NCBI GenBank assembly: GCA_045651865.1
Contig: JAZRTC010000021.1
Coordinates: forward strand, 2,065 to 66,064
Source: Acutalibacteraceae bacterium
Lineage (GTDB): Bacteria; Bacillota; Clostridia; Oscillospirales; Acutalibacteraceae
DNA length: 64,000 nt
Reading direction: 5' to 3'
Part shown: positions 4,104-59,208 of the stretch, in pieces
How the letters are laid out: each line of letters opens with the position of its first letter
Position numbering within the stretch: the stretch's first letter is position 1
Made by a program: the position numbers and the translations under genes
Notes under the pieces: generated by a model
Seen by the model: only the letters and a program-made list of their open reading frames with translations
Told to the model about the DNA's origin: nothing
The model's database searches: none

Positions 4104-4107
4104 TCTC

Positions 4108-5571: not shown

Positions 5572-5682
5572 AAATTTCGAAATATTTTTAAAAAAGACTG
5601 GATTTTTTGGGCATTGTGTGCTATTCTTAATCTGTATGGGAGGCAAATTCCCGCACTATATATTTCTAAGGAGGAAAAAACC

Positions 5683-33124: not shown

Positions 33125-33212
33125 AGTGTGTACCTCCGTAAACGGCGGCACACAAATCCTTCGAATTCATCTTAACATAACCACCGCCTTTCTGTCGAGT
33201 GGTAAATTTTTG

Positions 33213-34525: not shown

Positions 34526-35590
34526 TCGCCTTTACAGGTGCGCCAATTGGAATTGGAGCAACGACCGTGACGAAGGGCATATGTATGGGTGGTTCAGGTG
34601 GGATGGTAGTACACGCGATAGACATCTTCGGTCACTTCGATGGGAGTTCGGTCGATGAGAACAATGTTGTTCATAAATCAGTACCACCTAAGGTTCAACA
34701 AGGTGTATGGGTGGATGTGTCAGCGGAGCAGCTCGCTCGGCTGACGATGTTTAATACTGCATGGGACTCACCTTCTTTCTGGACAAAAAAGACCCGCTGA
34801 CAGCCATCGCGTGCGACTTACGCAATGACTCTCAGTGGCCTTTTTGTTTGTGTATTCAATTTGAGGATGGGACGAATGTCGCATAGATGCTGCACTTAAA
34901 TGGCGAGAATGTACCATTTAAGTAATAGATTAGTTAATGCAGCATCAAGATAATATCCTCATAATATATTATAAAGAAAAATAAATTTCATGTCGCAAGT
35001 AGAGTAGAAAAATTATCAAGGGGATGCAATCCCAGCCGCTTTACATAATTATTTCACCGTCAGGAGTACATCATATTTACATAAATTCGATTTTGGTTTA
35101 TGCGTTTGATGGGGCGTGAGTGTATGCGTGGCTTACATCACGCACAGCATCGCTACGCGAATGATGAAAAGAAAATGACTTTGACATATACCCGTAAAAA
35201 ACAAAAAGCCGCTCTGTTTTCAACCGAAAACAGTTCTGCTTTGTCTCGATTTAAGCATTTTTGCTACAAGAGAGGGATGTTTTGCAAACAGAAGGGTGGA
35301 GGAAAAAGTACATACTTACGGGACAAAAAGGACGATTTTAGTTTATTACTAAAGTGGTTTATAAGAGGATATAGGGATGATTCAAGTGTACCTCCTAGAT
35401 TGTTTTCAACAGGATATGTTCTTGTTTTCAATGTGTTGTTGAATTGTTTTCATCGATGTCTTCGATAGATTTCGATGTAGGTGAAAAAGAAACTGTGAAT
35501 AATTGTTGATGCTAAAAAGATGCTGGAGATGAACTGGATATACAAAGGAATCGGCAGATTATGTCTTCTATTGTAAATATTATGATGTTC

Positions 35591-35619
35591 TTGTTTTTCG
35601 TGAAAGAAAAATGTATAAT
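35591..35619 (+). promoter_or_regulatory. Sigma-70-type promoter of the TIR operon
   Basis: TTGTTT, 17-nt spacer, TATAAT. It lies 41 nt upstream of the ATG at 35660. Confidence 0.45.
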
Positions 35620-35659
35620 ATATATCAATAGTACAGTATGGAGTGGAGGTAAAGTGTTA

Positions 35660-37228
35660 ATGAAAGAGAAAAATATATTTATATCATATAAAAATGATGG
35701 TGAAGGTAGTAATTTTGCCGCAAGAATATGTTCGGATTTAGAGAGAATGGGACATAATGTGTATTTTAATCCTAATGAGCAACGCGCAGGGAATTTTCCT
35801 GATAGATTAAAAAATGCGGTTGAAGCATGTAAGGATTTCTTGTTAATAGTAACCCAATCATGCCTCGACCAGTTAATCAAGCATGATAAAATTGATTGGG
35901 TAAGAGAGGAATTACTTACTGCATATAGAAACGACAAAAATATAATTCCTCTTCTTATGCCAGGAGTTTCTATGCCTAAGGATAAGGAAGATATGCCTGA
36001 AGATTTAAGGTTTTTGCCGGATACGGATGCAGTAAGCATATTTGAACCATATGACAAGTCTCCATTTGAAGTTATTCTAAAATGGATGAAATCTATTCCT
36101 TCTAATGGTGAATTGTATAGAACGACATACCAAAGTAACCCTGATTATAGTATCGAAAAAGATTTTGAAGATGCGCAAAAACGGGCCAAAAGTGGAGATT
36201 ACGAAGCGATGTATGAGATTGCCACTTTTTATATGTATGGATTTGGAGCACCTAGAGCAAGTGAAGCAAGTTTTTGGTATCGTGAAATAGTGAAGTGTGA
36301 TAATGTGCAATTAAGATCATTAGCATTAAACCGTTTGGCAGGAATGTATTTTTCGGGGGAGCTTCCTGGAGAATCCCAATCGTTTGAAAAAGCTTTTGAA
36401 TTGAGGGAAGAAGCGGCAAAATATGATAAAAGTGCAGCAATGTTAAATGCGGCAATGAGGCGTATTGGATCAGGATGCAAGTTTGATTATCAATCGATAG
36501 ATCAGGGCTTTAAATCTCTAACTGTTGCGGATAGTATTGCGATAAAAGAGCAGGCGGAATTCTATGTAGCTTATGGAAAATTTCAAGATGCAATTGATTT
36601 ATTGAAAAAAATACAGGGAAAGATGCCTGCTGCAGCGTATCAGCTAGGAATGTTATATAAATTAGGTGTTCAAACACAGCCGCCAATGCCGGATTGTTAT
36701 AGGGCGGAAAGTTGCTTTCGGCGAGCGGTCAACAAGGGACATGTATTGGCTGCATATGAATTAGGAATGCTTTACTACAATCCTCCGCTGGGTGATTTTG
36801 AAAAGGATTTTGAACAAGCTGTGCAGTATTTTAAAATTGCTGCAGATGCGGGAATTCCTGAAGCACAATATAAACTTGGTTGGATGTATCGATTTGGACT
36901 TGGATGTGAAATCAATTATGAAAAAAGTATAAAATACGAACTGATGGCAGCCAATCAAGGTCATATAGGTGGTTATGGACAGCTTGCATATTTGTATCAA
37001 ATTGAAGGGTTTATCAATTATCAAAAAGCATTTAAATACGCAAAATCAGCAGCAGATGCTGGTCATGCGCACGGAGCCTTTCTATGTGGGAATTTTTTGT
37101 TTTTTGGAAGAGGATGTGAAGCGAATGAAACTGAAGCATTACGGTATTATCATTACGCGTATCAACACGGTTCTTATGAAGCAAAAATTATGATAGATAA
37201 GATCGAACGGAGGCGAAATAATGGGTAA
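35660..37228 (+). CDS. TIR domain - Sel1-like repeat protein (paralogue 1)
   Basis: GGAGTGGAGG RBS. N-terminal TIR (IFISYKNDGEG...DFLLIVTQ...IDWVREELLTAY). The C-terminal roughly 350 aa are Sel1 repeats (AVQYFKIAADAGIPEAQYKLGWMYRFGLGCEINYEKSIKY...). Confidence 0.8.
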   Translation: MKEKNIFISYKNDGEGSNFAARICSDLERMGHNVYFNPNEQRAGNFPDRLKNAVEACKDFLLIVTQSCLDQLIKHDKIDWVREELLTAYRNDKNIIPLLMPGVSMPKDKEDMPEDLRFLPDTDAVSIFEPYDKSPFEVILKWMKSIPSNGELYRTTYQSNPDYSIEKDFEDAQKRAKSGDYEAMYEIATFYMYGFGAPRASEASFWYREIVKCDNVQLRSLALNRLAGMYFSGELPGESQSFEKAFELREEAAKYDKSAAMLNAAMRRIGSGCKFDYQSIDQGFKSLTVADSIAIKEQAEFYVAYGKFQDAIDLLKKIQGKMPAAAYQLGMLYKLGVQTQPPMPDCYRAESCFRRAVNKGHVLAAYELGMLYYNPPLGDFEKDFEQAVQYFKIAADAGIPEAQYKLGWMYRFGLGCEINYEKSIKYELMAANQGHIGGYGQLAYLYQIEGFINYQKAFKYAKSAADAGHAHGAFLCGNFLFFGRGCEANETEALRYYHYAYQHGSYEAKIMIDKIERRRNNG

Positions 37229-38834
37229 GGATATTTTTATATCATATAAAAACGACGGTGAAGGAAACAACTTCGCTGCAAGAATATGTTCTGATTTAGA
37301 AAAGCTGGGATACGAAGTATATTACAATCCGAATGAACAGCATGCAGGTAGTTTCCCCGAAAGATTAAAAAATGCAGTGGAATCCTGCAAAGATTTTTTG
37401 CTAATTGTCACACAGCCTTGTCTTGAACAGCTAATGAGACATGACAAAATCGATTGGGTTAGAGAAGAACTACTTACAGCATATAGAAGTAAAAAAAACA
37501 TAATACCTCTTATTATGCCAGGAGTTTCTATACCTAAAGACAAAGATGATATGCCTGAAGATCTAAGTTTCTTACCAGACAAAGACGCTGTATGTGTATT
37601 TGAACCTTATGATAAATCTCCGTTTGAGAATATATTAAGTTGGATGAAGTCATTACCGGTTAACATGGAAAAATACAAAGATATTTTTCAGAGTAACAGC
37701 GACTATGATGTCAACGATGATTTTGCCACCACATTAAAGCGTGCTGAGTCTGGTGATGAAAAGGCTATGTATGAAATCGCCAATATGTATTTCTATGGAT
37801 ATACCAATGGAGACGGACAATCCAAAAGAGATTTTTCAAAAGCATATTCGTGGTTTACAAGATTATCTAATAGTGATAGTCCTTATGGCGTTTTTGCTAC
37901 CTCTATGTTAGGAAAAATGCACTATCGTGGTGTTGTTCCAAAAGAGAAGCAATCCTTTGTAAAATCATTTGAGTGTCACAAGAAAGCGGCACAAGGTGGT
38001 AGTGAATATTCAAAACAACAGTATGCATTTATGTTGTCAATGGGTATGGGCTGTGACTTTGATTATGATGCCGCAGAGCAACAGTACCTATCTGCAATGG
38101 AACACGGTGATAATGTTTCAATAAGTGGACTGGCGAAGTTCTACATTCAGTATGGCGAATTCAAAAAAGCAGAAAATTTATATAAAAACATTGTTGATAC
38201 ATACCCTATGGCAGCCTATGAATTAGGGTGTCTATATATGAAGGGATTATTGAGCGAAGATAAGAAACCCGATTGTTTTAAGGCGGCTTTCTATTTTCAA
38301 CACGCAATTAACACAGGCAAAGGTGATATGGATGCGCGTTATCAATTGGGTCTTCTGTATTTCAGAGGTACCAACGGTTTTATAAATGATTATAAAATTG
38401 CACAAGAAAACTTTGAGATTGCAGCAGATAGCGGTCATGTTGCCTCGGCGTACATGATTGGTTATATGTATGAACACGGACATGTTGAGTTGAATTTGGA
38501 GAAAGCTATACATTATCATGCGTTGGCGGCGGATCATGGTCATGTGTTGTCACCAACTCATTTAGCAATTCTCTATCAGTTGCCTGAACATCAAAACTAT
38601 CATAAGGCGATAAGGTATGCAAAACTTGCTGCGAGCTATGGCGAAAAAGAGGGTGAATTTGTATACGGTAATCTTCTTTTCTTTGGCAGAGGATGCAAAC
38701 CGGATAATAACGAAGCTTATAAAATGTACAAGCGCGCTCTTGAACACGGGTGTGATCAAGCCGCATTTATGATTGAGCGAATTGAATCAAGACAATTGGC
38801 CGATGATATGGGAAATCACAAAATTGGTTATTGA
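37221..38834 (+). CDS. TIR domain - Sel1-like repeat protein (paralogue 2)
   Basis: Overlaps paralogue 1 by 8 nt. Its TIR region is about three-quarters identical to paralogue 1 by eye, and it has Sel1 repeats (AIHYHALAADHGHVLSPTHLAILY...). Confidence 0.8.
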   Translation: MGKDIFISYKNDGEGNNFAARICSDLEKLGYEVYYNPNEQHAGSFPERLKNAVESCKDFLLIVTQPCLEQLMRHDKIDWVREELLTAYRSKKNIIPLIMPGVSIPKDKDDMPEDLSFLPDKDAVCVFEPYDKSPFENILSWMKSLPVNMEKYKDIFQSNSDYDVNDDFATTLKRAESGDEKAMYEIANMYFYGYTNGDGQSKRDFSKAYSWFTRLSNSDSPYGVFATSMLGKMHYRGVVPKEKQSFVKSFECHKKAAQGGSEYSKQQYAFMLSMGMGCDFDYDAAEQQYLSAMEHGDNVSISGLAKFYIQYGEFKKAENLYKNIVDTYPMAAYELGCLYMKGLLSEDKKPDCFKAAFYFQHAINTGKGDMDARYQLGLLYFRGTNGFINDYKIAQENFEIAADSGHVASAYMIGYMYEHGHVELNLEKAIHYHALAADHGHVLSPTHLAILYQLPEHQNYHKAIRYAKLAASYGEKEGEFVYGNLLFFGRGCKPDNNEAYKMYKRALEHGCDQAAFMIERIESRQLADDMGNHKIGY

Positions 38835-39273: not shown

Positions 39274-40437
39274 ATGAGTAATGATAATCAGGAACTACTC
39301 GAACTTTTTAAAAAATACCGCACTGGCGAAATATCTGAAAAAGATTTAACAGAAGAACAGTGCTTGCTTATCGGACAGATGTACGATAAACAGATACGCG
39401 AATTGAAAGCGAGTAATCGAAGCCGTCATTCTGCCGTTGAAGCCTGGGTTGAAACGCAAAGTGAAAACGATGAAACATTAATTGAAATCAAAAATATGTT
39501 GTCATCACTCGCCAAAACAACAGCAGGAAAAACTATAGATAAGTTCTATTTGAAGGAAAACAAGGCGGGTGTAGGTCTTGATTTGTATGATGGTGTAAAT
39601 TATCTCGCGACATATTTATCTTATGAGGACTGCATATGCGACATGGCGTTTCACTGGTCAATTGTTGATTTTGATACGATAGTTAATATGTTTATGCGTA
39701 AAAATATTTCAGTACAGCCGCCATACAAATACAGAGCAGTTGTTTCGGAGTTGTATTGTATAACAGAATCGGTACATAGATATGTGTTTTATGGGAACTC
39801 TTTGACTGCACTCTTAGAAAGAATAGAAACTGTAGAAAAAAGAAGCATTTCGTTTCCCGATAAGTTTATTTTTGGCGTACAAGGGGTTGCCATTTATTTA
39901 TTTGATGAAAATGAGTTAAAATACCAGTTTTGGCTCGGCGGAAGTGCGTTTCATAGCATAGCAGATGTAATAAAGGCAGCTCATGATAAAAATAAGTTTA
40001 TACCCAATGCAATTTTGCAAGAGTTTTCGGAGCTAAATAATGTAGATGTTTTTATTTCTCATAAAAGTCAAGATTTCTTACAAGCGAAAAAAGTGTACGA
40101 TCATTTGATTTCTCAAGGAATAGCAACATTTCTTTCTGAAATGTCCTTGCCGGCTATATCAAATGCTGATTATTCTGCCGAGATCGATAAAGCATTAGAT
40201 GCAACAAAAAACATAATTATCATTGCGACAAATCGAGAAAATGTTCTTTCTGGGTGGGTTCAATATGAGTGGACAGCTTTTGCCAACGAAAAACGCTCTG
40301 GAAGAAAGGACGGCAATATAATTACGCTCATTGATGAAAACATGCCTATTACAGAATTGCCAATTTTGTTAAGGCAATTCGAAGTAATACCAATGAATGA
40401 GTTTGAATCTGTCAAAAAATTTTTAAAATTATCCTAA
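39274..40437 (+). CDS. Unknown N-terminal domain fused to a C-terminal TIR domain
   Basis: AAAGGAG RBS. C-terminal TIR (VDVFISHKSQDF...NIIIIATNRENVLSGWVQYEWTAF). The N-terminal roughly 255 aa have no motif I recognise. Confidence 0.75.
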   Translation: MSNDNQELLELFKKYRTGEISEKDLTEEQCLLIGQMYDKQIRELKASNRSRHSAVEAWVETQSENDETLIEIKNMLSSLAKTTAGKTIDKFYLKENKAGVGLDLYDGVNYLATYLSYEDCICDMAFHWSIVDFDTIVNMFMRKNISVQPPYKYRAVVSELYCITESVHRYVFYGNSLTALLERIETVEKRSISFPDKFIFGVQGVAIYLFDENELKYQFWLGGSAFHSIADVIKAAHDKNKFIPNAILQEFSELNNVDVFISHKSQDFLQAKKVYDHLISQGIATFLSEMSLPAISNADYSAEIDKALDATKNIIIIATNRENVLSGWVQYEWTAFANEKRSGRKDGNIITLIDENMPITELPILLRQFEVIPMNEFESVKKFLKLS

Positions 40438-42362: not shown

Positions 42363-42507
42363 GAGTAATATTTAATTTGAAATTGTGATACATGATTTAT
42401 AAAGAGGCCATCTTAGCACAATGCATTAGCACAATGCTTAGATGACCTCTTTTTTATACTTATAATGTCGTTATATCGCACTTTTTTGTGCAATGCCGCA
42501 ATTAATA

Positions 42508-42536
42508 TTGTTTTTTCGACATGACTGTGGTATAAT
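42508..42536 (+). promoter_or_regulatory. Sigma-70-type promoter of the HTH/kinase-nuclease locus
   Basis: TTGTTT, 17-nt spacer, TGgTATAAT (extended -10). Confidence 0.5.
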
Positions 42537-42548
42537 ACATCTTGTCAA

Positions 42549-42567
42549 ATAATAATTACATTATTAT
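42549..42567. promoter_or_regulatory. Candidate operator palindrome
   Basis: Perfect palindrome ATAATAAT-tac-ATTATTAT between the -10 and the RBS of the HTH gene. Confidence 0.45.
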
Positions 42568-42586
42568 ACAGAAAGGAAACATATTT

Positions 42587-42802
42587 ATGGCTGTATCTTA
42601 CAACAAATTATGGCACCTGCTACTTGACAAAAAAATGAAGAAGAAAGATTTCCAAGAAGCAGCAAAGTTAACGCAACATGCTATGAGAAAACTGAGCAAA
42701 GATGAAGCTGTAACTACTGATACACTTGCGAAAATATGCAGGTATCTAGATTGCTCGGTTGACGATATTATGGAAGTGTTACCAGAGGAAAAAGAAAAAT
42801 AA
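42587..42802 (+). CDS. XRE/Cro-type HTH transcriptional regulator (71 aa)
   Basis: Start at M16 after GAAAGGAAAC. MAVSYNKLWHLLLDKKMKKKDFQEAAKLTQHAMRKLSKDEAVTTDTLAKICRYLDCSVDDIMEV. Confidence 0.75.
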   Translation: MAVSYNKLWHLLLDKKMKKKDFQEAAKLTQHAMRKLSKDEAVTTDTLAKICRYLDCSVDDIMEVLPEEKEK

Positions 42803-42837
42803 GCAATTAAATCACCAAAAGAAAAGAGGTAATAAAA

Positions 42838-45408
42838 ATGGGTGGAATTACACAAGCCATTAAAATAGCGAAAAGAGATTTCAGCAAAAAACTATATTTT
42901 AAAGAAGATATAGAAAAATTGATTTTTGACCTAGAAAATTGCATTAAAGACAAAAAAACAGATACTGAACAAACTGTGAGAATGAAAATCCTCAGAATGT
43001 TTGCTTCTTATGGCATTGAACTCGAAAAGAACTTAACTCCAGAACAATATCGCGAGCAATTGGAGCTGCATTACATTCAACCTATAAAAAATTTTCCTGA
43101 AATGTGTTGGAACGAAATGATGAAGTTCAACTTGGCGTACAAGACACCTAAGGAATACATGGAACGACTTGTTAATGAATTGGTATCTCCAGAATACAAT
43201 TTGCCTGATTCTCCAATTCGTTTAAAAATTCTTAAGCAAATTCTCGGTAAATTAGACTGTTTAAGAGGTACGAGTTTTCAAAGCAAAAAGTTAATCAATA
43301 TTATCGAAAATGATTACGATGGTATTGTTAGCAATATTGGCGATGAAATATTTAAAAATTATTTGACACCAATTCAGCCTAGCAAATATTTACGAGTGTT
43401 GCTTGATGTGTATGGTAACATTCTTTACCGCAATGACGAAAAAGATGATGATTTAACATTACTAGTTTCCAAGCATAATAATTCAGTTAAAGAGCAAACC
43501 GCAAGACAATTATTGCAAATTATCCATCCTAATAACCCACAAGCAAAAATAGACACTAATGGTAAAGCGATTGGATCTTTTAGCATAGAAGATTTTGATA
43601 GATCTTTGGTTGAACAAATTAAAAGTTACTTAGATGGAGTTAGAATCGCCTTTAAGGAAAAATATGATGAAGAACTGAAAAACATCGAACTTCTTGAGCA
43701 AGAAAAACATATCCGGCAGTTTCCAATAGTGATGCAATTTGTTGTCGAACACAAGTTATGTGAACATCTCAAGACAAAACGATTTGTTGCTCTTGTGAAA
43801 TCACATATGGGAATCGATGTAGATGAAGATAATGTGGATTGTAGTTTGATAGAAAGTATAATGAATTACTCGCTTTCCGCAGACTCAAAAGAAAAATTCA
43901 ATAATTATTTAATCAAACAAATCGCAAAGCTATTTGAAAAGGCAGACGATAAATCGAAAGAAGAATATAGTTCATTTGTATCAGCATTAAAAGAAATCGA
44001 AATTAGTTGTAATCGAGTTCAGTACAAAGCGATAGAGTTCTTTATTCAAAAAAAGGGTCTGCATGAGCAATTACTAACGAGTGAAATTAAAGACATAGTA
44101 GAGAGTCAACTAGAAAAAAAGCAAGAGGTTGAACTTTCGAATCATGAATTGATGGATCATCTGGCATTGGTAGCAAATGAGAATCCTGATGTTTTGAAAA
44201 AAGTTATCCCATTGTTAATTAAAAGAATAAAAGAGTTTAGGACGGAAACAAATCAAAGTTTTGCTAAAGGTTTAGATAATGTAAGCGATAGAGCGTCTAT
44301 CCCAGAGATCTTGAAAATTTCAAATGATTTAGCCGAAGGTAAATATAAGAGAGGTTCTGAAATGAAAGAAATCTTATATTTGTTTGCGTTCGCCTTTGAT
44401 ATGTCTATAAGCTTTGAAAATAATGAGACAAATACTTTAAGAGATGTCAAAAAAAATCTGTTCGAAGATTTTTATTGCGACAATATAATTCGTTATATCA
44501 ACGATTACCAGTTGAATGGTGTTTATGAAGAGCCATCAGGTATAACGATACAGTTTAAGAATTTTGTAGAAATTATTTATTTGTATTGGTTAAATAAAGA
44601 CAGCAGAACATATTCTCCAGCAGAAAAATATCTTTCTGCGAATGCAATGATCAAGAAAATAGTTTCTAAGATTAAATCTGCCGAGAAGGAAATAGACAAA
44701 TCAACTTCCCAATTAGGGAAAAAATATTTTGAAGCAAAAATGCTTACTGATAAAAAAGCCTTAGGTACCGAAGTCTATAGAAACTTTATAAGAACAGATA
44801 GTCAGGACGACGGCAATAAGCATTTGAAAATTGACAACTACTTGGGGCTATCAGAAGAAGAGTTTTTAGAAATTATTCTTCAGAACTATGATATTGATAC
44901 GACAATAAAATATACAACATCTGCTGCATTTGAAAATGAAAACTATCAAGAATCCGCTGAGTCTAATTTTGGGAAGTTGATAGATGAACTCAAAATGGAA
45001 ACAGATGGCACTGGATTTATTCCAAATTGTTATTCATTAGAGTTTTATGAAACTGTTTTTGATGAACTATTTGCCAAGAAAGAATATGACGTCAAATTAC
45101 ACACCCAACTTTCTACTTTGGTAAAAAAACTTAATGAACAAATGAAGCAGGTTTTAAGTGAGGCAGAGGTTGAAGGTTATAATCTCTTTACTCGAACAAG
45201 ATTTATGTACTTGTTTTATAATCACTTTGTACTGAGTCGTATCGGCGAGAAATACAACGAGACTTTTGATGATTTTTATGATGAGTATTGTGAGTCATTA
45301 AATAGGAAATTAGAAGATTGCTCATATCAACTTTTTTCTGAGAAGAACCTTATCGATATGATGTTGCTTTACTCTGCATTTATAACATTAAGGACAGAAG
45401 ACAATTAA
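42838..45408 (+). CDS. Large (856 aa) K/E-rich helical protein, no recognisable domain
   Basis: AAAGAGGT RBS and an uninterrupted ORF. I found no P-loop, nuclease or TM motif. Confidence 0.7.
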   Translation: MGGITQAIKIAKRDFSKKLYFKEDIEKLIFDLENCIKDKKTDTEQTVRMKILRMFASYGIELEKNLTPEQYREQLELHYIQPIKNFPEMCWNEMMKFNLAYKTPKEYMERLVNELVSPEYNLPDSPIRLKILKQILGKLDCLRGTSFQSKKLINIIENDYDGIVSNIGDEIFKNYLTPIQPSKYLRVLLDVYGNILYRNDEKDDDLTLLVSKHNNSVKEQTARQLLQIIHPNNPQAKIDTNGKAIGSFSIEDFDRSLVEQIKSYLDGVRIAFKEKYDEELKNIELLEQEKHIRQFPIVMQFVVEHKLCEHLKTKRFVALVKSHMGIDVDEDNVDCSLIESIMNYSLSADSKEKFNNYLIKQIAKLFEKADDKSKEEYSSFVSALKEIEISCNRVQYKAIEFFIQKKGLHEQLLTSEIKDIVESQLEKKQEVELSNHELMDHLALVANENPDVLKKVIPLLIKRIKEFRTETNQSFAKGLDNVSDRASIPEILKISNDLAEGKYKRGSEMKEILYLFAFAFDMSISFENNETNTLRDVKKNLFEDFYCDNIIRYINDYQLNGVYEEPSGITIQFKNFVEIIYLYWLNKDSRTYSPAEKYLSANAMIKKIVSKIKSAEKEIDKSTSQLGKKYFEAKMLTDKKALGTEVYRNFIRTDSQDDGNKHLKIDNYLGLSEEEFLEIILQNYDIDTTIKYTTSAAFENENYQESAESNFGKLIDELKMETDGTGFIPNCYSLEFYETVFDELFAKKEYDVKLHTQLSTLVKKLNEQMKQVLSEAEVEGYNLFTRTRFMYLFYNHFVLSRIGEKYNETFDDFYDEYCESLNRKLEDCSYQLFSEKNLIDMMLLYSAFITLRTEDN

Positions 45409-45415
45409 CCCCCCT

Positions 45416-45459
45416 CTTGTTTGCATTTTTATAAATGATATTATTGTTATGCAAACAAG
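45416..45459 (+). other. Intergenic hairpin between the 856-aa and 1401-aa genes
   Basis: 11-bp perfect stem CTTGTTTGCAT / ATGCAAACAAG with a 22-nt AT loop. It follows a C6 tract and has no T-run. Confidence 0.5.
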
Positions 45460-45494
45460 AACTGTCGTAAAAATGAAAGGAGAATTATTCAACG

Positions 45495-48400
45495 ATGGAT
45501 TCCAGAGCTTTTATGAGAAAAGGCGAAAAAATAACACTATGTGAAGAAATTTCAGGAAATAAAAAAACATTTTCAATTATATCTAAAGACGGGGCAGGTT
45601 CATCATCTGTATCCTATATTGCAACTTGTGGAAGAAAAACGGGGCGACTGAAGGAGTTTTATCCTTGCGATCACAACAATGGCGAATTATTCGCAATTAT
45701 CCGTAAAAAAGACAACCAACTTTTTTGTTCCAATCAAAACGAAGAGGCAACCAAAACTTACGCTGCTATGATGGATGAATACATAGAATCCTATCATATT
45801 CTTGAAGATGCAAAAAAAGAAGCTGAAAAAGGAAACAATTCGTTTAGTACATTTATTCCAAGTTTTGAGATTTTCAGAGGTTGTGACGAAAATGGCAATG
45901 CAGGTGGAAGTGCGTATATTTGGACTATTGATAATACCGGAGATTTTGAAACGTTCGATAAGTATTTAGAAAAGGTCCACAAACACCCTTCTCGCAACCC
46001 AGCCAAGGCTCTTTTTGTAATTCTTAAAACTTTATATAACTTAACAGAGTGCGTAAAAACACTGCATACAGCCGGATTGATTCATAGTGACATTAAACCT
46101 GAAAACTTTGGATTTTCAATCAGAGATGGACGTCATTTGACTGAACAGGTTCAACTTTTCGATGTAAATTCCATTTATTCTGTTTATACAAACTTCCCCA
46201 CCTTTACAGGGACTGCAGGATTTTGTGCACCGGAAGTATTCAAAGGGAAAATCACCAATCAGTCTGATTTGTACTCAATTGGTGCAGTATTGTTTAATGC
46301 AGTTGCATTAGACGATGATATTAAAGATAGTTTGTATTCAGATGAATTTTACGCAAATATTGATGAAATCGTTGCGAATTCTAAATTGCTTAACGCAAGT
46401 CCTATTACAGCAAGTGTAAGATTCCAGGCTAAAATATCCGGAATTCTAAAAAAGTGCTTAGCTAAAGAACTGAGAAAAAGAATTGACAATTGTGACGAAC
46501 TCAAAAAAGATTTGCAGAGTGCATGTGCGTTGCTTATTCCGGCCCAATATAACGATATTCTTGATCTTGGAAGCGAGCTAAAAATAATTGATAAAGAATT
46601 GGAACAATTTAATGAAGCTGATTCGACATTTGCTTTCCAAAGTTTGATTTTTAACCATCCTCTTTACGAAAACGCAGACGATACCATCAAAATTCTTATT
46701 GCGGGCTTTGGTGTATATGGACAGCAGTTCCTGGATATTTGTTTGCAGGCAGGACAAATCAAGGGAAAAAAATTAGAGATTGCAGTTATAACACAAGATA
46801 AGGTGGCTTACAAAAAAGAATATTTGGATCAACGACCTGCCCTTATCGATTTCTTCGAGATAGATGGTGAAGGAGACACAAGTAGTACTAATTATGGAAA
46901 AATCACCTTTATCACGCCAGAAGAAGTTTTTGATGATCCGGAAACATCTGCAAGGTTCGCAAACGGATTTAGTAGAGGCACCAGCAGAGCTGATTTGCAG
47001 TACAACAAGGCACTCGCTCAAGAATTAATGCTTACTAAATGTGAATCAAGCTATGTATTCGTAGCTTTAGGCGAAGATCAATTGAACTTATCAGTAGCTA
47101 AGGCTTGTGCTAAAGTGGTATCTAGCTTTGCTGAATTAAAATGTACGGTAGCATGTGTTTGTAATGACAATAAAAATCACAAAGGAATTTTAACAGTTAA
47201 TGTAACAGCTAAGGCAAGTGAAAACAAAAGCTACGAGGAGATTGAGCGAATGGCATTTAATGCCCACCTCTCTTGGAATAGCCCGTTAAAGTTAAACATC
47301 AATCTGAGAAAAGCTAAGCGCGAGTTTTCGGATAAATATAATCACGATGCATCAGTTGCGTGTGTTCTGGCAATAAAAAATTCTCTATATTCGTGCGGAA
47401 TTGCATTAGATGATTTGTCGGAAGAGTCGATCGCAAAAGCAGCGAGTGAATATAGTGGTTTTATCAAAAGCAACAAGGATATCTTTGCCGAATTAGTTTA
47501 TGTAGAGCACAAACGGTGGGTTGTTGATAAAATCACAAACGGTTGGACATTTAGAAGCAATCTTACCGACTGTTTGTATGGTCCTATCAACGATAAGAAG
47601 AAAAAGCAGCATCCTTGTATTGTGAAAAGCAAAGTTGATTTCAATTTGGAAAAGTATTATAAGAATGCCTCAACTGGTAAGTGGTATAAGTCCAAGTGGA
47701 ATGAACGTTGTGATGATGATGGATTACTAGATGAATTAGACACAATATCTATTAAACTTCATAGGTTGTTCTTTGAAGCCGCAAAGGAAGTAAAAAGCAC
47801 CTTTTCTCTTAATGGAGAAGAAGTCAATAGAATTCAGTGGTTAATCAATGAGCATAAAGATTCTGTAATTGCCTTTAATGAGTGGATGCTGTGTTTAAAA
47901 CGTATTTGGGATATGGATGAAGCTCAGGCAAAATTCTATGATGGATATAGAGATGCCTTTTTGGAAACGATCTCCTCACTTTCAAAGCCAGAGCGAGAAG
48001 ATGTCATTAGGTATGTGAAAATTATTGATTCCAAAGTCACTCCAATTATTTTCGCATATAGAATGAGAGATTATAAGGCATCCGATAAAGATTTAATAAA
48101 TGCAATTCCGTTTATACTCACCAATCGAGAAAACAGAAGAGTATTTATTCCTTTGATGAATGGTGACAATACAGAGAGATTCAATAATGTAGCCTCAGCG
48201 ACATTGATTAATCCGGATACGATTACATATGGTGTTTACCTGAGAACTCATGATAATACAAAAGAATTTCTTGAAATAACAAATCATATTCTATCTTATA
48301 TGGATAAAAAGGATATCAAATCCAAATTAAAGTTTGCTTTGATTTATAGTGATAACGATAAGAAGATTAAGCAATCTATTGCTGAATTGATTGAGAAGCT

Positions 48401-49700
48401 AAGAAAGATGGATCCGCGAATCAAACAAATTTTTAACCTTCCTGTGTTAAATGAGGCCGATATCGCAACTACACTGTCCTCTCAAATAGTCGCTGATGCA
48501 TATGAAAATAATTCAGCTTACTTGTCTGCATTATTGGTTGGAGCTGGATTTTTCGCAAATAAGCCCACGTATAGTTTTGACTCATTTGATAAAAAGTTTG
48601 TTGTCTCAAATGGTTGCGAATGGCTCAACTATATAAGAAGTGGTCAATTTATCACCATTCCGGATATGTTATCTTTTAAGAGCTCTACAGGTGTCATGGA
48701 AGCATTACCTGAGTATGCTGAATATAAAGAACTCTGGAAGCTTTATAAAGGTACTAGCTACGCTTGGAAAGATATGTGCAAAGTACTTGAGAAGTTTGCA
48801 GACAGTAATGATTTGATTTCTAGTTTTAATATTCAAACCGACTTCACTAATGCAAAGACATTGGAATTTGTAATTCCAAATGAGCTGAGAGATAGTTATA
48901 ACCACATAATTTCTTATCTTAGGGATATTGCTCTTGCAATCGGCGAATCGTCACGCGTGGAGTATAAATCAATCGAATCGTGCAAAGTAACGATTGTTGT
49001 TGGTCAAAACAACATTGATGCAGCCAAGAAACTGTTTGCAAATCCTTATATGCTTATGAACCGTAGAAACATATCGATACGAACAAAGCCTAAAAAGGCG
49101 GAGATATTACTGAATAGTCTCGTTGTTAATGAGCTGAAGATGGATGATTATCCTGAATATTCAGATAAAAAGAAAAAAATTGGAGAGATTTTCCTAACAC
49201 TTCAAAAAGAAGGATATATCTACAATTTAAGAAATGTGGATAATCAAGTATTTTCTTTTGTTTATTCCACGAGACAAGCAAAGCAGTTAATGACAAGTGC
49301 AGGTAGAATTTTAGAAATATATGTTTATCACAAACTCCAAGAGTCTGGCTTTGATGATGTGGTAAGTGGGTATGAAATCAATTGGGGAGATACAGATGTA
49401 AAATCAGAATTTGACTGCATTGTTACCTCTGGTTTCAAATGTGCAATGATAGAATGTAAAGCACAGGATAAAATTTCCCAAGATTACTACTACAAGCATT
49501 CTTGCTTAGCAAAGCAATTTGGCATTAATGCAATACCTGTCTTAATTGCGGATACTCATGAAAGAGAGGATTGGGATAATAGTACAAACGAAATGCAGCG
49601 CGAACGCGGAAAAATGATGGGCGTTGTTACAGTATACGATCGTGACGATATCAGTAATATTGATATGACGCTTAGACGAATATTAAACGGCAAATACTAA
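45495..49700 (+). CDS. 1401-aa fusion: Hanks-type Ser/Thr kinase, Rossmann-like region, RyR-like region, unknown middle, C-terminal PD-(D/E)xK (DUF1887/Card1-like) nuclease
   Basis: Kinase: GRLKEF Lys, catalytic loop HSDIKPEN (res 197-204), LFDV, GTAGFCAPE, SDLYSIGAVLF. Rossmann-like: KILIAGFGVYGQQ (res ~399-412). RyR-like: VYVEHKRWVVDKITNGWTF...KKQHPCIV (res ~668-710). Nuclease: LEIYVYHKL...SEFDCIV...MIECKAQ (D1307, E1320, K1322). Confidence 0.75.
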   Translation: MDSRAFMRKGEKITLCEEISGNKKTFSIISKDGAGSSSVSYIATCGRKTGRLKEFYPCDHNNGELFAIIRKKDNQLFCSNQNEEATKTYAAMMDEYIESYHILEDAKKEAEKGNNSFSTFIPSFEIFRGCDENGNAGGSAYIWTIDNTGDFETFDKYLEKVHKHPSRNPAKALFVILKTLYNLTECVKTLHTAGLIHSDIKPENFGFSIRDGRHLTEQVQLFDVNSIYSVYTNFPTFTGTAGFCAPEVFKGKITNQSDLYSIGAVLFNAVALDDDIKDSLYSDEFYANIDEIVANSKLLNASPITASVRFQAKISGILKKCLAKELRKRIDNCDELKKDLQSACALLIPAQYNDILDLGSELKIIDKELEQFNEADSTFAFQSLIFNHPLYENADDTIKILIAGFGVYGQQFLDICLQAGQIKGKKLEIAVITQDKVAYKKEYLDQRPALIDFFEIDGEGDTSSTNYGKITFITPEEVFDDPETSARFANGFSRGTSRADLQYNKALAQELMLTKCESSYVFVALGEDQLNLSVAKACAKVVSSFAELKCTVACVCNDNKNHKGILTVNVTAKASENKSYEEIERMAFNAHLSWNSPLKLNINLRKAKREFSDKYNHDASVACVLAIKNSLYSCGIALDDLSEESIAKAASEYSGFIKSNKDIFAELVYVEHKRWVVDKITNGWTFRSNLTDCLYGPINDKKKKQHPCIVKSKVDFNLEKYYKNASTGKWYKSKWNERCDDDGLLDELDTISIKLHRLFFEAAKEVKSTFSLNGEEVNRIQWLINEHKDSVIAFNEWMLCLKRIWDMDEAQAKFYDGYRDAFLETISSLSKPEREDVIRYVKIIDSKVTPIIFAYRMRDYKASDKDLINAIPFILTNRENRRVFIPLMNGDNTERFNNVASATLINPDTITYGVYLRTHDNTKEFLEITNHILSYMDKKDIKSKLKFALIYSDNDKKIKQSIAELIEKLRKMDPRIKQIFNLPVLNEADIATTLSSQIVADAYENNSAYLSALLVGAGFFANKPTYSFDSFDKKFVVSNGCEWLNYIRSGQFITIPDMLSFKSSTGVMEALPEYAEYKELWKLYKGTSYAWKDMCKVLEKFADSNDLISSFNIQTDFTNAKTLEFVIPNELRDSYNHIISYLRDIALAIGESSRVEYKSIESCKVTIVVGQNNIDAAKKLFANPYMLMNRRNISIRTKPKKAEILLNSLVVNELKMDDYPEYSDKKKKIGEIFLTLQKEGYIYNLRNVDNQVFSFVYSTRQAKQLMTSAGRILEIYVYHKLQESGFDDVVSGYEINWGDTDVKSEFDCIVTSGFKCAMIECKAQDKISQDYYYKHSCLAKQFGINAIPVLIADTHEREDWDNSTNEMQRERGKMMGVVTVYDRDDISNIDMTLRRILNGKY

Positions 49701-49711
49701 TTCAAAACTCA

Positions 49712-49743
49712 TCCGACCATTCAATATTGTCTGGATGGTCGGA
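49712..49743 (+). other. Hairpin after the kinase-nuclease gene
   Basis: 9-bp stem TCCGACCAT / ATGGTCGGA with a weak T-run. Confidence 0.4.
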
Positions 49744-49778
49744 CGAAAACAATATATTTATTTTGAAAGGATACATGT

Positions 49779-50063
49779 ATGTATACACCAAAACCGATTG
49801 ATACAAAAAACATTGCACTTCCGGAAGAACTTCTCGCTCTGACTGAAAAAATCGCTGAGAATGTTCATGATGTATGGGCACAGGGCCGAATTTCTGAGGG
49901 TTGGACGTATGGCGAAACTAAGGATCCCGAGAAGAAAACCACACCGCTCCTTGTCCCATATGAAGAATTGGCCGACAGTGAGAAAGATTATGACCGTAAT
50001 ACTGCGTTAGAAACACTGAAGCTGATTGTTAAACTGGGTTATTCAATCAAAAAAGTAGAATAA
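49779..50063 (+). CDS. Stand-alone RyR (ryanodine-receptor repeat) domain protein
   Basis: LPEELLALTEKIAENVHDVWAQGRISEGWTYGETKDPEKKTTPLLVPYEELADSEKDYDRNTALETLKLIVKLGYSI fits the bacterial RyR-domain pattern. Confidence 0.75.
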   Translation: MYTPKPIDTKNIALPEELLALTEKIAENVHDVWAQGRISEGWTYGETKDPEKKTTPLLVPYEELADSEKDYDRNTALETLKLIVKLGYSIKKVE

Positions 50064-50136
50064 CCCCACCCCCTTCCCATTATGCACTAAATCATATGGT
50101 ATACTTCAATCATCGAAAACGAAAGAGGTATACCAT

Positions 50137-50370
50137 ATGAAAAAATGCAAAATTTTACACATCAATGATGGCACAGCAAAAGTGATAACCAATGGCGACA
50201 AACATTTTGCTGAAGAACATTCGTGGGCTGAGAATTTGATTGAAGGATATCTTAACCAAGGATATGAAGTTAAGCAAATGATTCCAAATTATACCCCTAA
50301 CATGCAAAAGACTGGTGAGTATTCATTCTTTATAGGCGGGTTTACTATCTATATGGAAAAGGAGGTATAA
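50137..50370 (+). CDS. Hypothetical protein (77 aa)
   Basis: AAAGAGG RBS. Its stop lies 1 nt before the next start. Confidence 0.5.
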   Translation: MKKCKILHINDGTAKVITNGDKHFAEEHSWAENLIEGYLNQGYEVKQMIPNYTPNMQKTGEYSFFIGGFTIYMEKEV

Positions 50371-50371
50371 T

Positions 50372-51187
50372 ATGTTTTCTGAAATTCTCCGATGCTATGA
50401 TGAGCTTATTGGCAAATTAAACTTATATAGTGTTCAAGAATGTGTGGACGCTTTTTTAACGATCAATCACAGTAGGATAGAAAAGAAAAAGGAATTATCG
50501 TCTAAAAATGAATTTGAGGTATACAAATATGCACAGCAATTAGTGAAGGAGTTTTTGGCTTCAGATGATGATTATGACTTTTTTGCCAAGATTGAAAAGA
50601 TTAGAAACAGAACGCTTGTTGAATACGCAGAACGCATTGAGAATAAATGCAAACAATGGGATGCGATTCTTGACATGAAGGAAGAACAATTTACATTGTT
50701 ACTCAAGGAACGGTTAGCTAAGAAACCAATTGGTTTTGGAAGTTCTGGTGACAAGAAATTAGAATGGTTCGTTATCGGTGTGGATCCCTTTCAATCTGCG
50801 GTTAAACTGTTCTTAACAGAGCCACAGTACCAAACTGTATTCAAGGACAACGGATATACAGATATAGACGATGATGAAATGTGTCCGGAATTAGCTTGTA
50901 GTTGGATGGGTTCAGATATTCGAAGGTGTCTAAATACAAAGGGATACAACAATGCGTTTTCTGATGTAGAGAAGCAGTTCGTTTTAAAAACTCGAAGACA
51001 TATCAATAAGAATGACTTTGTTATACAAAATGATATATCTGAGGATTATGTGTTTTTATTGGATTTAGATGAGTTTCTTATGCTTCCAGCCGAAATTCAG
51101 AATTGTGAAACAACTGTTGGAGGCGAATTTTACTGGTTGGCAGAACAAAAATCCCGTGGTTGGGACGATACCTGTGAGCTTCCGTAA
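50372..51187 (+). CDS. Hypothetical protein with DUF6273-like C-terminal region
   Basis: KLEWFVIGVD...WMGSDIRRCLNTKGYNNAFSDVEKQFV...DYVFLLDLDEF resembles the DUF6273 pattern. Confidence 0.45.
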   Translation: MFSEILRCYDELIGKLNLYSVQECVDAFLTINHSRIEKKKELSSKNEFEVYKYAQQLVKEFLASDDDYDFFAKIEKIRNRTLVEYAERIENKCKQWDAILDMKEEQFTLLLKERLAKKPIGFGSSGDKKLEWFVIGVDPFQSAVKLFLTEPQYQTVFKDNGYTDIDDDEMCPELACSWMGSDIRRCLNTKGYNNAFSDVEKQFVLKTRRHINKNDFVIQNDISEDYVFLLDLDEFLMLPAEIQNCETTVGGEFYWLAEQKSRGWDDTCELP

Positions 51188-52096: not shown

Positions 52097-52798
52097 GTGA
52101 GTATTTATGTAACATCAGATTTACACGGTTATCCGTTGAAAAAACTTCAAAATAAACTTGAAGAAATCGAGTTTGGCTTCAATGATCATTTGTACATCTT
52201 AGGCGATTGTATCGACCGTGGTACGGATGGACTGCAACTCATTCGATGGATAATGGCGCAGCCAAATGTAACGTTGTTGCTCGGAAATCATGAAGCAATG
52301 CTTCTCGACAATAGGTTCCTTTTTGATGGTGATTCTATCCCTTCCGTTTTAGATCTTAAAGGAGAGCAACGTAATACTTACTGTGTTTGGACATCAAATG
52401 GCGGATACGAAACAATTGATTTGATGAGACAGTTTTCCGATGCGCAGATTAAACACATTTTTAGATTTCTTGAAAAAGCACCACTTTACAAGGAAATTGC
52501 AGTAAATGGAAAACAATATATTTTAACACATAGTGGACTAGGATCTTTTGCCGAAGATAAACTTCTTTCTGAGTATTCACGATTTGATTTAGTTTGGACT
52601 AGACCTTCGCTAAATACAAGATATTATGAGGATGGCAGAAAAGTAATTTTGGGACACACACCTACCGTTCTTTTAGGACCAGAACACAAAGGTAAACCGA
52701 TTTTTACCGATACATGGATTGGTATCGATGTAGGTGCCGGCATTGGAATGAACCCCGTTCTTCTTCGATTAGATGACTTGAAAGTGTTTTATTTTTGA
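52097..52798 (+). CDS. PPP-family metallophosphoesterase (Ser/Thr phosphatase 1 / lambda-PPase-like)
   Basis: SDLHGY, GDCIDRG, GNHE and LGHTP motifs. GTG start after GGGGAG. Confidence 0.8.
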   Translation: MSIYVTSDLHGYPLKKLQNKLEEIEFGFNDHLYILGDCIDRGTDGLQLIRWIMAQPNVTLLLGNHEAMLLDNRFLFDGDSIPSVLDLKGEQRNTYCVWTSNGGYETIDLMRQFSDAQIKHIFRFLEKAPLYKEIAVNGKQYILTHSGLGSFAEDKLLSEYSRFDLVWTRPSLNTRYYEDGRKVILGHTPTVLLGPEHKGKPIFTDTWIGIDVGAGIGMNPVLLRLDDLKVFYF

Positions 52799-58541: not shown

Positions 58542-59207
58542 ATGAGTAAAGACCATATACCGAGTGACTTTGGGCGCCCAAGTGGATATAAATCCGATTT
58601 GGAAATCGCTGAAACAGGCTCAAAAGTTAAGTCTATAAACACATCTTTCGGAAGTAAAAACCACAATGCATATATTATGCGGACAGACAAAACTCATGAA
58701 CATTTCTACTATAATCCGCAAACACAAAAGAGTGGATGGCACGGACACAATTATGAAACACGTAATAATCATCCACAACTCAACATAGAACACGTTGATA
58801 AAAAGGGAGAAACAACAATGGAAAAATCCAATTCATTTATTGAAAGCTTAAAGGTAGACCAAGCAACGATTGATCGTTGTAATGAGGTCTCGAAGAACGC
58901 GGCACAAAAAGCTAATACACCGACATCGCGAAGTCAGAACGTGGATGGTGGCCGAGAACGTGGTGATAGTGGTCCAGGTAGTCTTGGTAGAGAGTCCGGT
59001 TATAAAAGTGGTGAAAGCAACTCCGGACATGAGGGTAACAGTGCTGCGCATTCTTCAAGTAGCAACGGAGCATCGGGACATAGTTCCAGTGGGGAGGGTT
59101 CTTCCGGTGGCCACGGGAACGGCGGTGAAGGTTCCGGAGGACAGGGCTCCGGTGGTCAAGGATCTGGCGGAGGTCATGGATCAGGAGGTTCAGGAGGAGG
59201 TCACTGA
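58542..59207 (+). CDS. Protein with Gly/Ser/His-rich low-complexity C-terminus
   Basis: ATG at 58542 after AAGAGGTG. Tail SGHEGNSAAHSSSSNGASGHSSSGEGSSGGHGNGGEGSGGQGSGGQGSGGGHGSGGSGGGH. Confidence 0.6.
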   Translation: MSKDHIPSDFGRPSGYKSDLEIAETGSKVKSINTSFGSKNHNAYIMRTDKTHEHFYYNPQTQKSGWHGHNYETRNNHPQLNIEHVDKKGETTMEKSNSFIESLKVDQATIDRCNEVSKNAAQKANTPTSRSQNVDGGRERGDSGPGSLGRESGYKSGESNSGHEGNSAAHSSSSNGASGHSSSGEGSSGGHGNGGEGSGGQGSGGQGSGGGHGSGGSGGGH

Positions 59208-59208
59208 T

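Follow-up and report, generated by a model that had tools for sequence, protein, structure and literature searches.

The described systems closest to the locus considered here belong to several separate groups. Nucleases of the Can2/Card1 type (CARF4, DUF1887) are stand-alone proteins of ~350–450 aa, the defence kinases PD-T4-6 and Stk2 are single-gene systems, and the TerY-P triad is composed of vWA, PP2C and Ser/Thr kinase components. In animals, the RyR domain is a kinase-targeted regulatory module, and RyR repeats work as pairs, as in Repeat1-2 and Repeat3-4 of RyR and in the bacterial 3NRT homodimer of B. thetaiotaomicron. Proteins combining TIR with STAND or with repeats are usually self-contained NADase effectors. 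Four residues that contact cyclic tetra-adenylate (cA4), namely, S19, T42, K99 and Y118, are common to Can1 and Can2, and VC1899 of Vibrio cholerae is not activated by cA4 (PMC7969007). The subject of the present analysis is a gene cassette on a 64,000-nt stretch of contig JAZRTC010000021.1 of an Acutalibacteraceae bacterium (the whole stretch is referred to below as the window), in which the gene of an 856-aa helical protein (the partner) precedes that of a 1401-aa kinase–nuclease, designated here KCN. With moderate confidence, the locus is considered an instance of an undescribed, horizontally mobile conflict system, most likely an anti-phage or anti-plasmid one. Its building blocks are known (a defence kinase, a Can2-like nuclease, PP2C, TIR and an XRE regulator), and the partner family is wholly uncharacterised.

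Conservation of the Partner–KCN Pair

The cassette and its two core genes were located as follows:

42508–50063, + strand: kinase–nuclease cassette
42838–45408, + strand: partner gene, encoding an 856-aa all-helical protein of an uncharacterised family (core component)
45495–49700, + strand: KCN gene, 1401 aa (whole open reading frame, ORF)

All elements listed in the original prediction, which had been made from the sequence alone (ORFs with their lengths and order, promoter, palindrome and hairpins), were found in place. As a description of the full system, the list proved incomplete, since a PP2C phosphatase present in about half of the family, as well as recurrent TIR-repeat proteins and RyR fusions, had been overlooked.

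The locus set comprised 58 KCN loci (individual loci are cited below as L with a number), all ORFs of which were searched with hidden Markov models (HMMs), one genome per species being scanned. Full-length KCN relatives were found at ~50 loci among 185,579 species representatives, with a patchy distribution across phyla. Their hosts were gut and rumen Clostridia, Lachnospiraceae, Oscillospiraceae, Ruminococcus, Selenomonadaceae, Synergistaceae and Sphaerochaetaceae. The partner gene was found directly 5′ of the KCN gene in ~50 of the 58 loci, that is, wherever upstream DNA was available, and both genes were on the same strand in all loci except L006, where they were divergent. The 856-aa and 1401-aa genes, proposed earlier as possible conserved neighbours, are thus a strict syntenic pair in about 50 other genomes. 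A gene encoding a PP2C phosphatase of ~230 aa was situated between the partner and KCN genes in 27 of the 58 loci, and the cassette of the window lacked it. Beyond the partner, PP2C and the small RyR protein, each other gene family was present in nine loci at most. The obligate core of the system consists of the helical partner and KCN, and its optional components are PP2C, the small RyR protein, TIR-plus-repeat proteins and a helix-turn-helix (HTH) protein.

In same-contig pairs, the identities of KCN and the partner were 87 and 75%, 72 and 67%, and 67 and 51%, respectively, and those for L001 were 63% and ~33%; the partner diverges faster than KCN. Comparison of the window with L054, which additionally carries a PP2C gene, revealed identities of 93% for the HTH protein, 94% for the small RyR protein, 85% and 82% for the products of a 77-aa and a 271-aa gene, and 93% for a metallophosphatase (Metallophos), whereas the partner and KCN were only 25% and 36% identical. 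The similarity at the DNA level ended just past the stop codon of the HTH gene and restarted at the ribosome-binding site (RBS) of the RyR gene. The divergent pair thus lies between flanks that are 82–94% identical, and the partner and KCN have been swapped as one unit. Such a swap, together with the rapid change of the partner, follows a pattern of the diversifying immune type, and we therefore infer that the two proteins co-evolve and interact physically. The clean exchange of the pair between conserved flanks represents a natural experiment on specificity.

Domain Architecture of KCN and the Partner

The length of KCN ranged from ~1300 to ~1500 aa across the family, for which 67 full-length or near full-length homologues were found; residue conservation was evaluated in an alignment of 46 homologues. 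The following domains were recognised in the protein of the window:

45567–46529, + strand (KCN residues ~25–345): Ser/Thr protein kinase domain (Pkinase PF00069, E-value = 1.9 × 10−15, above the gathering score)
46683–47204, + strand (residues ~397–570): Rossmann-like domain with a GxGxxG motif (G404-F-G406-V-Y-G409), beta-alpha-beta in the AlphaFold2 (AF2) model with a predicted local distance difference test (pLDDT) score of ~90
47496–47774, + strand (residues ~668–760): divergent RyR-type repeat (EHKRWvvDKitnGW...HPCIV...LDELD), partial and sub-threshold RyR match in Pfam (E-value = 0.008)
48132–48704, + strand (residues ~880–1070): CARF-like Rossmann domain of the Can2/Card1 type (Foldseek)
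49212–49697, + strand (residues ~1240–1401): PD-(D/E)xK nuclease (Card1_endonuc; CARF4--CARF_PDDEXK in PADLOC, E-value = 7.7 × 10−13; PF09002, E-value = 1.5 × 10−6)

The fusion of a kinase with a nuclease, proposed earlier, was confirmed for both domains; the Rossmann domain and the internal RyR-like repeat had escaped notice. Sequence searches resolved only the kinase and nuclease domains; the direct kinase match spans residues 175–331, and the best-scoring models are those of defence kinases (PD-T4-6 models to 10−17 and Mad6 10−10; PADLOC, NCBIfam). The kinase holds the full set of catalytic core motifs (beta3 Lys, HxDxKxxN, Mg-binding Asp, APE, alphaF Asp and alphaH-I Arg), with K53, D199, N204, D223, APE 245–247, D258 and R329 being nearly invariant. 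The same degree of conservation was found for D1307, E1320 and K1322 of the nuclease (plus D1287 and D1288), so the residues picked in advance as catalytic in the two domains (D199 and D1307/E1320/K1322) were well chosen. The Rossmann domain had weak matches to NAD(P)-binding families in Pfam and to dehydrogenases in Foldseek; its G404 is invariant, and G406 is nearly so. The strongest conservation in the family is found in the internal RyR-like repeat (within the helical region 580–870), where E671, R674, W675 and H706 are invariant.

The AF2 model of KCN residues 351–1401, built on the homologue alignment, had a pLDDT of 89.6 and a predicted template modelling score (pTM) of 0.83. The ten best Foldseek matches in the PDB were all VC1899, Can2, Cdn1 or Card1 (probability 1.00, E-value from 8 × 10−10 to 1 × 10−6), the whole chains of which were aligned by the last ~520 aa of KCN; the target template modelling score (TMt) was 0.47–0.66 in nine of these matches and 0.36 in the tenth, Cdn1-cA3 (8z4i). 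According to the model, the last ~520 aa of KCN form a complete Can2/Card1-like CARF and PD-(D/E)xK module, in which a sub-domain is inserted between the CARF and nuclease domains. Comparison with a viral structure library gave no significant match. Short forms of KCN, consisting of the kinase, the Rossmann domain and the RyR-like region, lack the CARF–nuclease part and are still paired with a partner; some of them end in a fused canonical RyR domain. It should be noted that the alignment with full-length short forms misplaced this C-terminal RyR domain onto the start of CARF, and its PDB matches were used for the short forms only.

The partner had no match in Pfam, PADLOC, NCBIfam, PHROGs or the PDB, whether searched as a single sequence or as a 50-sequence profile, in agreement with the earlier observation that no catalytic or nucleotide-binding motif is found in the 856-aa protein. 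Its AF2 model, consisting entirely of helices, was of moderate to low confidence (pLDDT 66.7), and Foldseek found no structural neighbour for it. The partner family includes 469 clusters at 50% identity, with a typical length of 520–650 aa; in the partner of the window, residues ~250–480 form a long helical insertion. The conserved regions are the core 490–585, with the nearly invariant residues D536, R552, P566, G568 and E578, and the C-terminus 785–852, with the nearly invariant motif T785-R786.

RyR Proteins and TIR Genes Associated with KCN

Genes encoding RyR and TIR proteins of the window were as follows:

49779–50063, + strand: gene of a 94-aa RyR-domain protein (PF02026, E-value = 6.7 × 10−37, 126 bits against a cut-off of 27.4)
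35561–37228, + strand: TIR-Sel1 gene (TIR_2, Sel1)
37221–38834, + strand: TIR-Sel1 gene (TIR_2, Sel1)
39274–40437, + strand: X-TIR gene (TIR domain)

Small RyR proteins cluster with KCN: 25 such ORFs were found in 24 distinct loci, in 18 of which the gene was directly 3′ of KCN. The RyR domain occurred in four forms, namely, as a stand-alone protein, fused to TIR, at the C-terminus of TIR-STAND proteins, and at the C-terminus of the short kinase forms. The RyR-TIR fusion in L018 occupies the place of the small RyR gene, and in L044 a gene encoding a TIR-STAND-RyR protein is directly 5′ of the partner gene; in L008 and L057, the gene 3′ of the small RyR gene encodes an RyR-less homologue of this TIR-STAND protein. 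Since RyR repeats pair and the most conserved block of KCN contains a single divergent repeat, RyR is most simply read as a homotypic adaptor by which accessory proteins would dock onto KCN.

The 25 bacterial small RyR ORFs retain nearly the whole consensus of the eukaryotic repeat (AENVHdvWA..R..EGWtYG...K.TP.LVPY..L..sEK.YDRNTA), and in place of the His of the eukaryotic KKHPCLVPY they have a conserved Thr-Pro that the linked kinase might phosphorylate.

TIR-plus-repeat proteins were detected with TIR HMMs within 10 kb in 23 of the 58 KCN loci and in none of 27 control loci (Fisher p = 4 × 10−5), a comparison that is indicative only, as the controls were recovered via the kinase domain alone and came from other phyla. 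The TIR proteins at KCN loci carry beta-propeller, ankyrin, leucine-rich, Sel1/TPR or STAND regions and are of the same type as the TIR-Sel1 proteins of the window. Their genes adjoin or run into the 5′ end of the partner gene in five loci (L024, L048, L051, L057 and L059) and lie directly 3′ of KCN or RyR in four (L013, L023, L045 and L047). The three TIR genes of the window are located 2.1–7 kb 5′ of the cassette, outside the segment to which the original prediction was confined. The TIR operon mentioned there as lying 2 kb away is indeed present; because TIR-repeat proteins and RyR fusions recur at KCN loci, it is probably a linked accessory module and not a mere neighbour. The TIR-Sel1 genes form a tandem pair of paralogues, with 78% identity over 300 nt (35673–35972 vs 37231–37530) and an 8-nt overlap (37221–37228).

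The recurrence of TIR genes is also what would be expected of a Thoeris-like system, in which TIR-repeat proteins would sense infection and make an NAD-derived signal, and KCN would be the effector that reads this signal with its Rossmann domain or orphan CARF. Besides the enrichment within 10 kb, this explanation is favoured by the contact of several TIR genes with the partner, KCN or RyR genes, by the existence of RyR-TIR and TIR-STAND-RyR fusions, by the two Rossmann-type candidates for ligand binding in KCN, and by the window itself, where three consecutive TIR genes with ThsB-like PADLOC and Pfam matches recall multi-ThsB Thoeris loci. However, 60% of the loci have no TIR gene within 10 kb, and in the window three unrelated genes and a strong terminator lie between the TIR genes and the cassette. 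The fusion of TIR with RyR suggests protein–protein coupling rather than a diffusible signal, the TIR-STAND and TIR-repeat architectures are those of NADases that usually act by themselves, and the text of a 2025 survey of TIR signalling mentions no kinase, CARF, RyR or PP2C effectors. Taken together, a Thoeris-like role of the locus is considered unlikely.

Mobile Context of KCN Loci

The GC content of the window was ~54% at 1–23 kb, ~45% at 24–34 kb and 33–42% at 34–64 kb, the cassette being placed inside an AT-rich, low-GC island that adjoins host DNA with ~54% GC. Two genes of mobile elements were identified by library matches:

31439–33151, − strand: large serine recombinase gene
58870–60498: gene of a type IV secretion system (T4SS) coupling protein

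The location of the cassette in a serine-recombinase island, as described earlier, was thus supported. Given the drop in GC content, the serine recombinase, the TIR genes and the T4SS coupling protein, the island is probably an integrative conjugative or mobilisable element. The segment of intermediate GC content (24–34 kb), which ends at the serine recombinase gene, may represent a second, older insertion. At other KCN loci, genes of conjugation, STAND ATPases, GmrSD, Mrr and TIR proteins were found nearby, and among the 149 nearest flanking ORFs of ~50 loci, TIR_2 was the most frequent Pfam family, followed by conjugation and Clp genes. The surroundings of KCN loci are therefore of mobile-element or defence-like character.

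Several individual loci have a composition of their own. In L004 (positions 1–6139), a genuine TerY-P-like set of two vWA genes, two kinases and PP2C is directly 5′ of the partner gene, and GmrSD, Mrr and Schlafen/AlbA genes on the downstream side complete a dense defence island. The 38-kb contig CAMOGQ010000017.1 contains two complete partner–PP2C–KCN systems, L013 and L052, ~20 kb apart; in L052, a 1109-aa kinase-less paralogue with the Rossmann, RyR-like, CARF and nuclease parts is encoded directly 3′ of KCN.

A role in addiction to, or stabilisation of, an integrative conjugative element, or in competition between elements, would be compatible with this context, the partner and/or the phosphatase being the antidote to a toxic kinase–nuclease. 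Genes of a serine recombinase and a T4SS coupling protein are part of the AT-rich element in the window, other loci repeatedly have coupling protein and Clp protease genes beside them, the two core genes co-evolve tightly and are swapped as a cassette, and the operon includes a small HTH protein resembling an autoregulator. Nevertheless, typical toxin–antitoxin pairs are much smaller and less modular than these proteins, many loci lie outside recognisable conjugative elements, and searches of 72,556 sequenced plasmids and 50,697 phages gave no homologue of the system beyond the kinase domain. Immunity accounts better for the neighbouring TIR, STAND and other defence genes, and an addiction or competition module is regarded as improbable.

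Relation of the CARF Module to Type III CRISPR Systems

The similarity of the C-terminal module of KCN, along its entire length, to the cA4-activated enzymes Can2, Card1 and Cdn1, as well as the PADLOC assignment of the C-terminus to CARF4--CARF_PDDEXK, raises a further explanation, according to which KCN is an ancillary effector of type III CRISPR acting in trans. Cas10-made cA4 or another cyclic oligoadenylate (cOA) would then activate the nuclease through CARF, and the kinase and partner would be add-on outputs or regulators. In accordance with this, a Csm6-like CARF gene, cas1, cas2 and a 951-aa RT/AEP-TOTE gene are present in one locus, L088 (positions 1–4832), 2.5–9 kb 5′ of the partner–KCN–RyR genes; this block could be a source of cOA for CARF or simply share a defence island with the cassette. 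Against this explanation, no CRISPR array or cas gene was found within the 64-kb window, no cas family was among the most frequent flanking families of ~50 loci, and no cyclase or Cas10 was a conserved neighbour at ~50 KCN loci, the strict linkage being to the partner and PP2C and not to Cas10.

The CARF domain of KCN itself may point in the same direction. Its motif NVAxAT..P...Y aligns with Can2 residues 24–41, and the beta4-alpha4 region is unconserved in the family. In the weak HMM alignment to Can2, neither the equivalent of T42 nor the beta4-alpha4 region, where K99 and Y118 would be expected, showed family conservation, so that at least three of the four cA4-contact equivalents tentatively fall at unconserved positions of KCN. 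The best structural match is VC1899, an orphan, and the CARF domain of KCN is probably an orphan as well. The earlier statement that the locus is not a type III CRISPR accessory thus holds with regard to CRISPR association, although the C-terminal ~520 aa do form a Can2/Card1-like module. An effector role in a type III CRISPR response seems quite unlikely.

A housekeeping kinase of gut anaerobes serving non-conflict signalling or DNA metabolism is very improbable, for although some loci have housekeeping flanks and pairs of Ser/Thr kinases and PP2C are common in Firmicute physiology, the patchy cross-phylum spread, the GC-deviant island with its cassette swapping, the defence-family nuclease and the enrichment of TIR neighbours are at variance with such a function.

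Proposed Function and Mechanism

Thus, a mobile conflict system with an anti-phage or anti-plasmid role is the favoured explanation of the locus; the details of its mechanism are held with less confidence than its class. In such a system, the fast-diverging partner would bind KCN and serve as its specificity or sensor subunit, and an infection cue would lift an inhibition or otherwise switch on the kinase. Phosphorylation, reset by PP2C where this is present, would activate the Can2-like nuclease, which would nick or degrade DNA or RNA so that the infected cell no longer supports the invader. The VC1899-type orphan CARF could act as a platform for dimerisation and allostery or bind a ligand other than cA4. 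The 94-aa RyR protein would dock on the one internal RyR-like repeat of KCN, as expected if RyR repeats act in pairs, and this contact would couple KCN to accessory proteins, notably those with TIR domains. In the lineage of the window, the small HTH protein may repress the operon from the dyad located 3′ of the extended −10 promoter.

More specifically, it is possible, as a tentative model, that KCN is a CARF nuclease freed from cyclic-oligoadenylate control, gated instead by the kinase with PP2C and by a diversifying sensor, with RyR wiring TIR, STAND and repeat proteins to it; as a variant, the orphan CARF or the Rossmann domain may read a nucleotide derived from TIR. If this is true, the RyR domain would have a role in bacteria.

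Several points weigh against the favoured conflict system. Its defence role is derived from composition and genomic context. The absence of PP2C from the window means that a reset by phosphatase cannot hold here unless the Metallophos product encoded at 52097–52798 substitutes for it. The AF2 model of the partner is weakest precisely in the conserved core (504–572, pLDDT <50), no domain is recognisable in it, and the role of sensor, suggested earlier together with that of scaffold, is a guess; the partner may just as well inhibit KCN, serve as a substrate or have an enzymatic activity. The judgement that cA4 is not the ligand is based on a weak alignment to Can2 and on family conservation, not on structural superposition. 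To these are added the CRISPR-related genes of L088, the distant origin of the control loci used for TIR, and the genes of gyrase, a penicillin-binding protein and FtsW that border some KCN loci.

If confirmed, the conflict system would be a multi-gene defence, as yet without a name, that is widespread among anaerobes of the gut and rumen. Nucleases of the Can2/Card1 type could then be regulated by phosphorylation without cyclic oligoadenylates, which would explain orphan CARF nucleases such as VC1899. A first function would also be assigned both to the partner family with its 469 clusters and to the RyR domains of bacteria, which would be adaptors linking immune modules, TIR proteins among them.

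Promoter, HTH Gene, Intergenic Hairpins and Downstream Genes

The remaining elements of the cassette and its borders were as follows:

42404–42455, + strand: intrinsic terminator of the preceding gene (GAGGCCATCT...AGATGACCTC followed by T6), left edge of the conserved cassette head
42508–42536, + strand: promoter read from the sequence, TTGTTT (42508–42513), 17 nt, extended −10 TGgTATAAT (42528–42536)
42549–42567: AT-rich dyad between the −10 element and the RBS, perfect 8-3-8 palindrome ATAATAAT-TAC-ATTATTAT
42587–42802, + strand: gene of a 71-aa XRE/Cro-type HTH regulator (HTH_26 PF13443, E-value = 2 × 10−18; ATG at 42587)
45415–45460, + strand: hairpin with a 12-bp stem in the 86-nt partner–KCN spacer (dG −18.3, z −4.3; no T-tract 3′)
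49712–49743, + strand: hairpin with a 12-bp stem between the KCN and RyR genes (z −3.2; no T-tract 3′)
50137–51187, + strand: two small genes (77 aa and 271 aa) that move with the cassette in the window lineage

The terminator is kept in L087 and L054 with compensatory changes in its stem. Its loop (42412–42441) contains a 13-nt tandem duplication (CTTAGCACAATG × 2.4) that is not present in L087 or L054. The −35 element of the promoter is weak, with three of six consensus positions, and was not listed by a consensus scan; the extended −10 TGnTATAAT and the sequence TTGTT are kept in both HTH-carrying relatives, L087 and L054. At the position of the palindrome, these two loci have an imperfect dyad, TAATnAC(G/A)TnATTA (TAATnACGTnATTA), and the dyad at 42549–42567 is a candidate operator of the HTH protein. 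The palindrome does not form a stable RNA hairpin (z −0.46). As evidence by itself it was rejected, such palindromes being common in this AT-rich DNA (15 with 8-bp arms observed in the 30-kb island vs 5.6 expected).

The HTH protein is VanU-like according to NCBIfam (E-value = 1.7 × 10−20, below the cut-off). Its gene is restricted to one sub-lineage, consisting of the window, L087 (a 96% relative) and the L054 type; most loci, including L088 with its 87%-identical KCN, lack it. The HTH protein is a lineage-specific accessory part and not a core component, so the description of the locus as HTH-gated is true for the lineage of the window and not for the system as a whole. In all six places where the same HTH cluster (≥90%) was found, it heads a partner–PP2C–KCN cassette of the L054 type; the possibility that it is a generic cassette regulator with varied cargo was rejected on this ground.

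The hairpin in the partner–KCN spacer, described earlier with an 11-bp stem, is present and has a stem of 12 bp; it is kept in L088 and, with the compensatory change CTTG/CAAG to CATG/CATG, in L087. The hairpin between the KCN and RyR genes has conserved stems and variable loops in L087 and L088 and is not present in L054, where the cassette breakpoint is located. Both intergenic hairpins look like elements of mRNA processing or stability and not like terminators. The 77-aa gene, located 3′ of the RyR gene, has its RBS and ATG sequestered in a third strong hairpin (50096–50136, 12-bp stem, z −4.4).

For the 77-aa and 271-aa genes, whose identities to their L054 counterparts are given above, no family match was found. 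Further downstream, 2 kb 3′ of the cassette and on the same strand, is the Metallophos gene, encoding a 233-aa phosphatase of the PPP type with the motifs GDxHG, GDxxDRG and GNHE. Such a gene is also present 3′ of the cassette in L007, L054, L087, L088 and L089, four of which have no PP2C; its product may substitute as a phosphatase or may be an ApaH-like nucleotide hydrolase.

Comparison with Known Systems

No entry of PADLOC-DB 2.0, NCBIfam 20 (June 2026), Pfam or PHROGs covers the system, and no description of it was found in the full-text literature, in agreement with the original prediction that the part list corresponds to no named system. In PADLOC, the partner and the RyR protein had no match, the partner had none in NCBIfam, and KCN had only domain-level matches to kinases and CARF_PDDEXK. 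The NTP-dependent conflict systems described by Kaur et al. (2020) include no RyR domain and no matching architecture. CoCoNuT and TerY-P were rejected as identities of the locus, since their vWA, McrBC and helicase parts are absent here. TerY-P shares with KCN loci the pairing of a kinase with PP2C in a conflict context; unlike TerY-P, the cassette contains no vWA, its kinase has an unrelated architecture, and PP2C is optional and missing from the window.

The likeness to Thoeris consists in the recurrence of ThsB-like TIR genes nearby, three of them in the window, and in the Rossmann-type sensor candidates of KCN. In contrast to Thoeris, TIR genes are an optional part of the system; most of them encode fusions with repeats or STAND, their link to the system is through RyR fusions, and SLOG and Macro effectors are absent. 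Searches of KCN with Pfam, PADLOC and NCBIfam revealed no effector domain known from Thoeris, and KCN corresponds to none of the 29 effector types that the 2025 survey describes in its text.

The kinase domain scores best against PD-T4-6, Stk2, Mad6 of MADS and PglW of BREX. However, these kinases have no fused nuclease, CARF, RyR or partner, and only the kinase domain of KCN matches them, far below the equivalog cut-offs; unlike the single-gene systems PD-T4-6 and Stk2, KCN is accompanied by an obligate partner. As a canonical single repeat, the 94-aa protein is comparable to 3NRT of B. thetaiotaomicron and to eukaryotic RyR repeats, but, in contrast to these, the repeat is part of a conflict system, would pair with the internal repeat of KCN, and occurs fused to TIR and STAND.

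The closest similarity is to Can2/Card1, especially VC1899: the last ~520 aa of KCN have the same whole fold, including the extra sub-domain (TMt up to 0.66), share the catalytic residues D...ExK and contain an alignable N-terminal CARF motif, and KCN, like VC1899, has no link to a type III CRISPR locus. Whereas Can2 and Card1 stand alone, the corresponding module of KCN is the C-terminal third of a protein that begins with a kinase, a Rossmann domain and an RyR-like repeat. Unlike these nucleases, KCN also has an obligate partner gene, apparently unconserved cA4-contact positions and no linked cyclase. The effector half of KCN is more like the orphan VC1899 than like the enzymes activated by cA4, and an orphan CARF nuclease gated by phosphorylation and provided with RyR adaptors would, if confirmed, represent a new regulatory logic.

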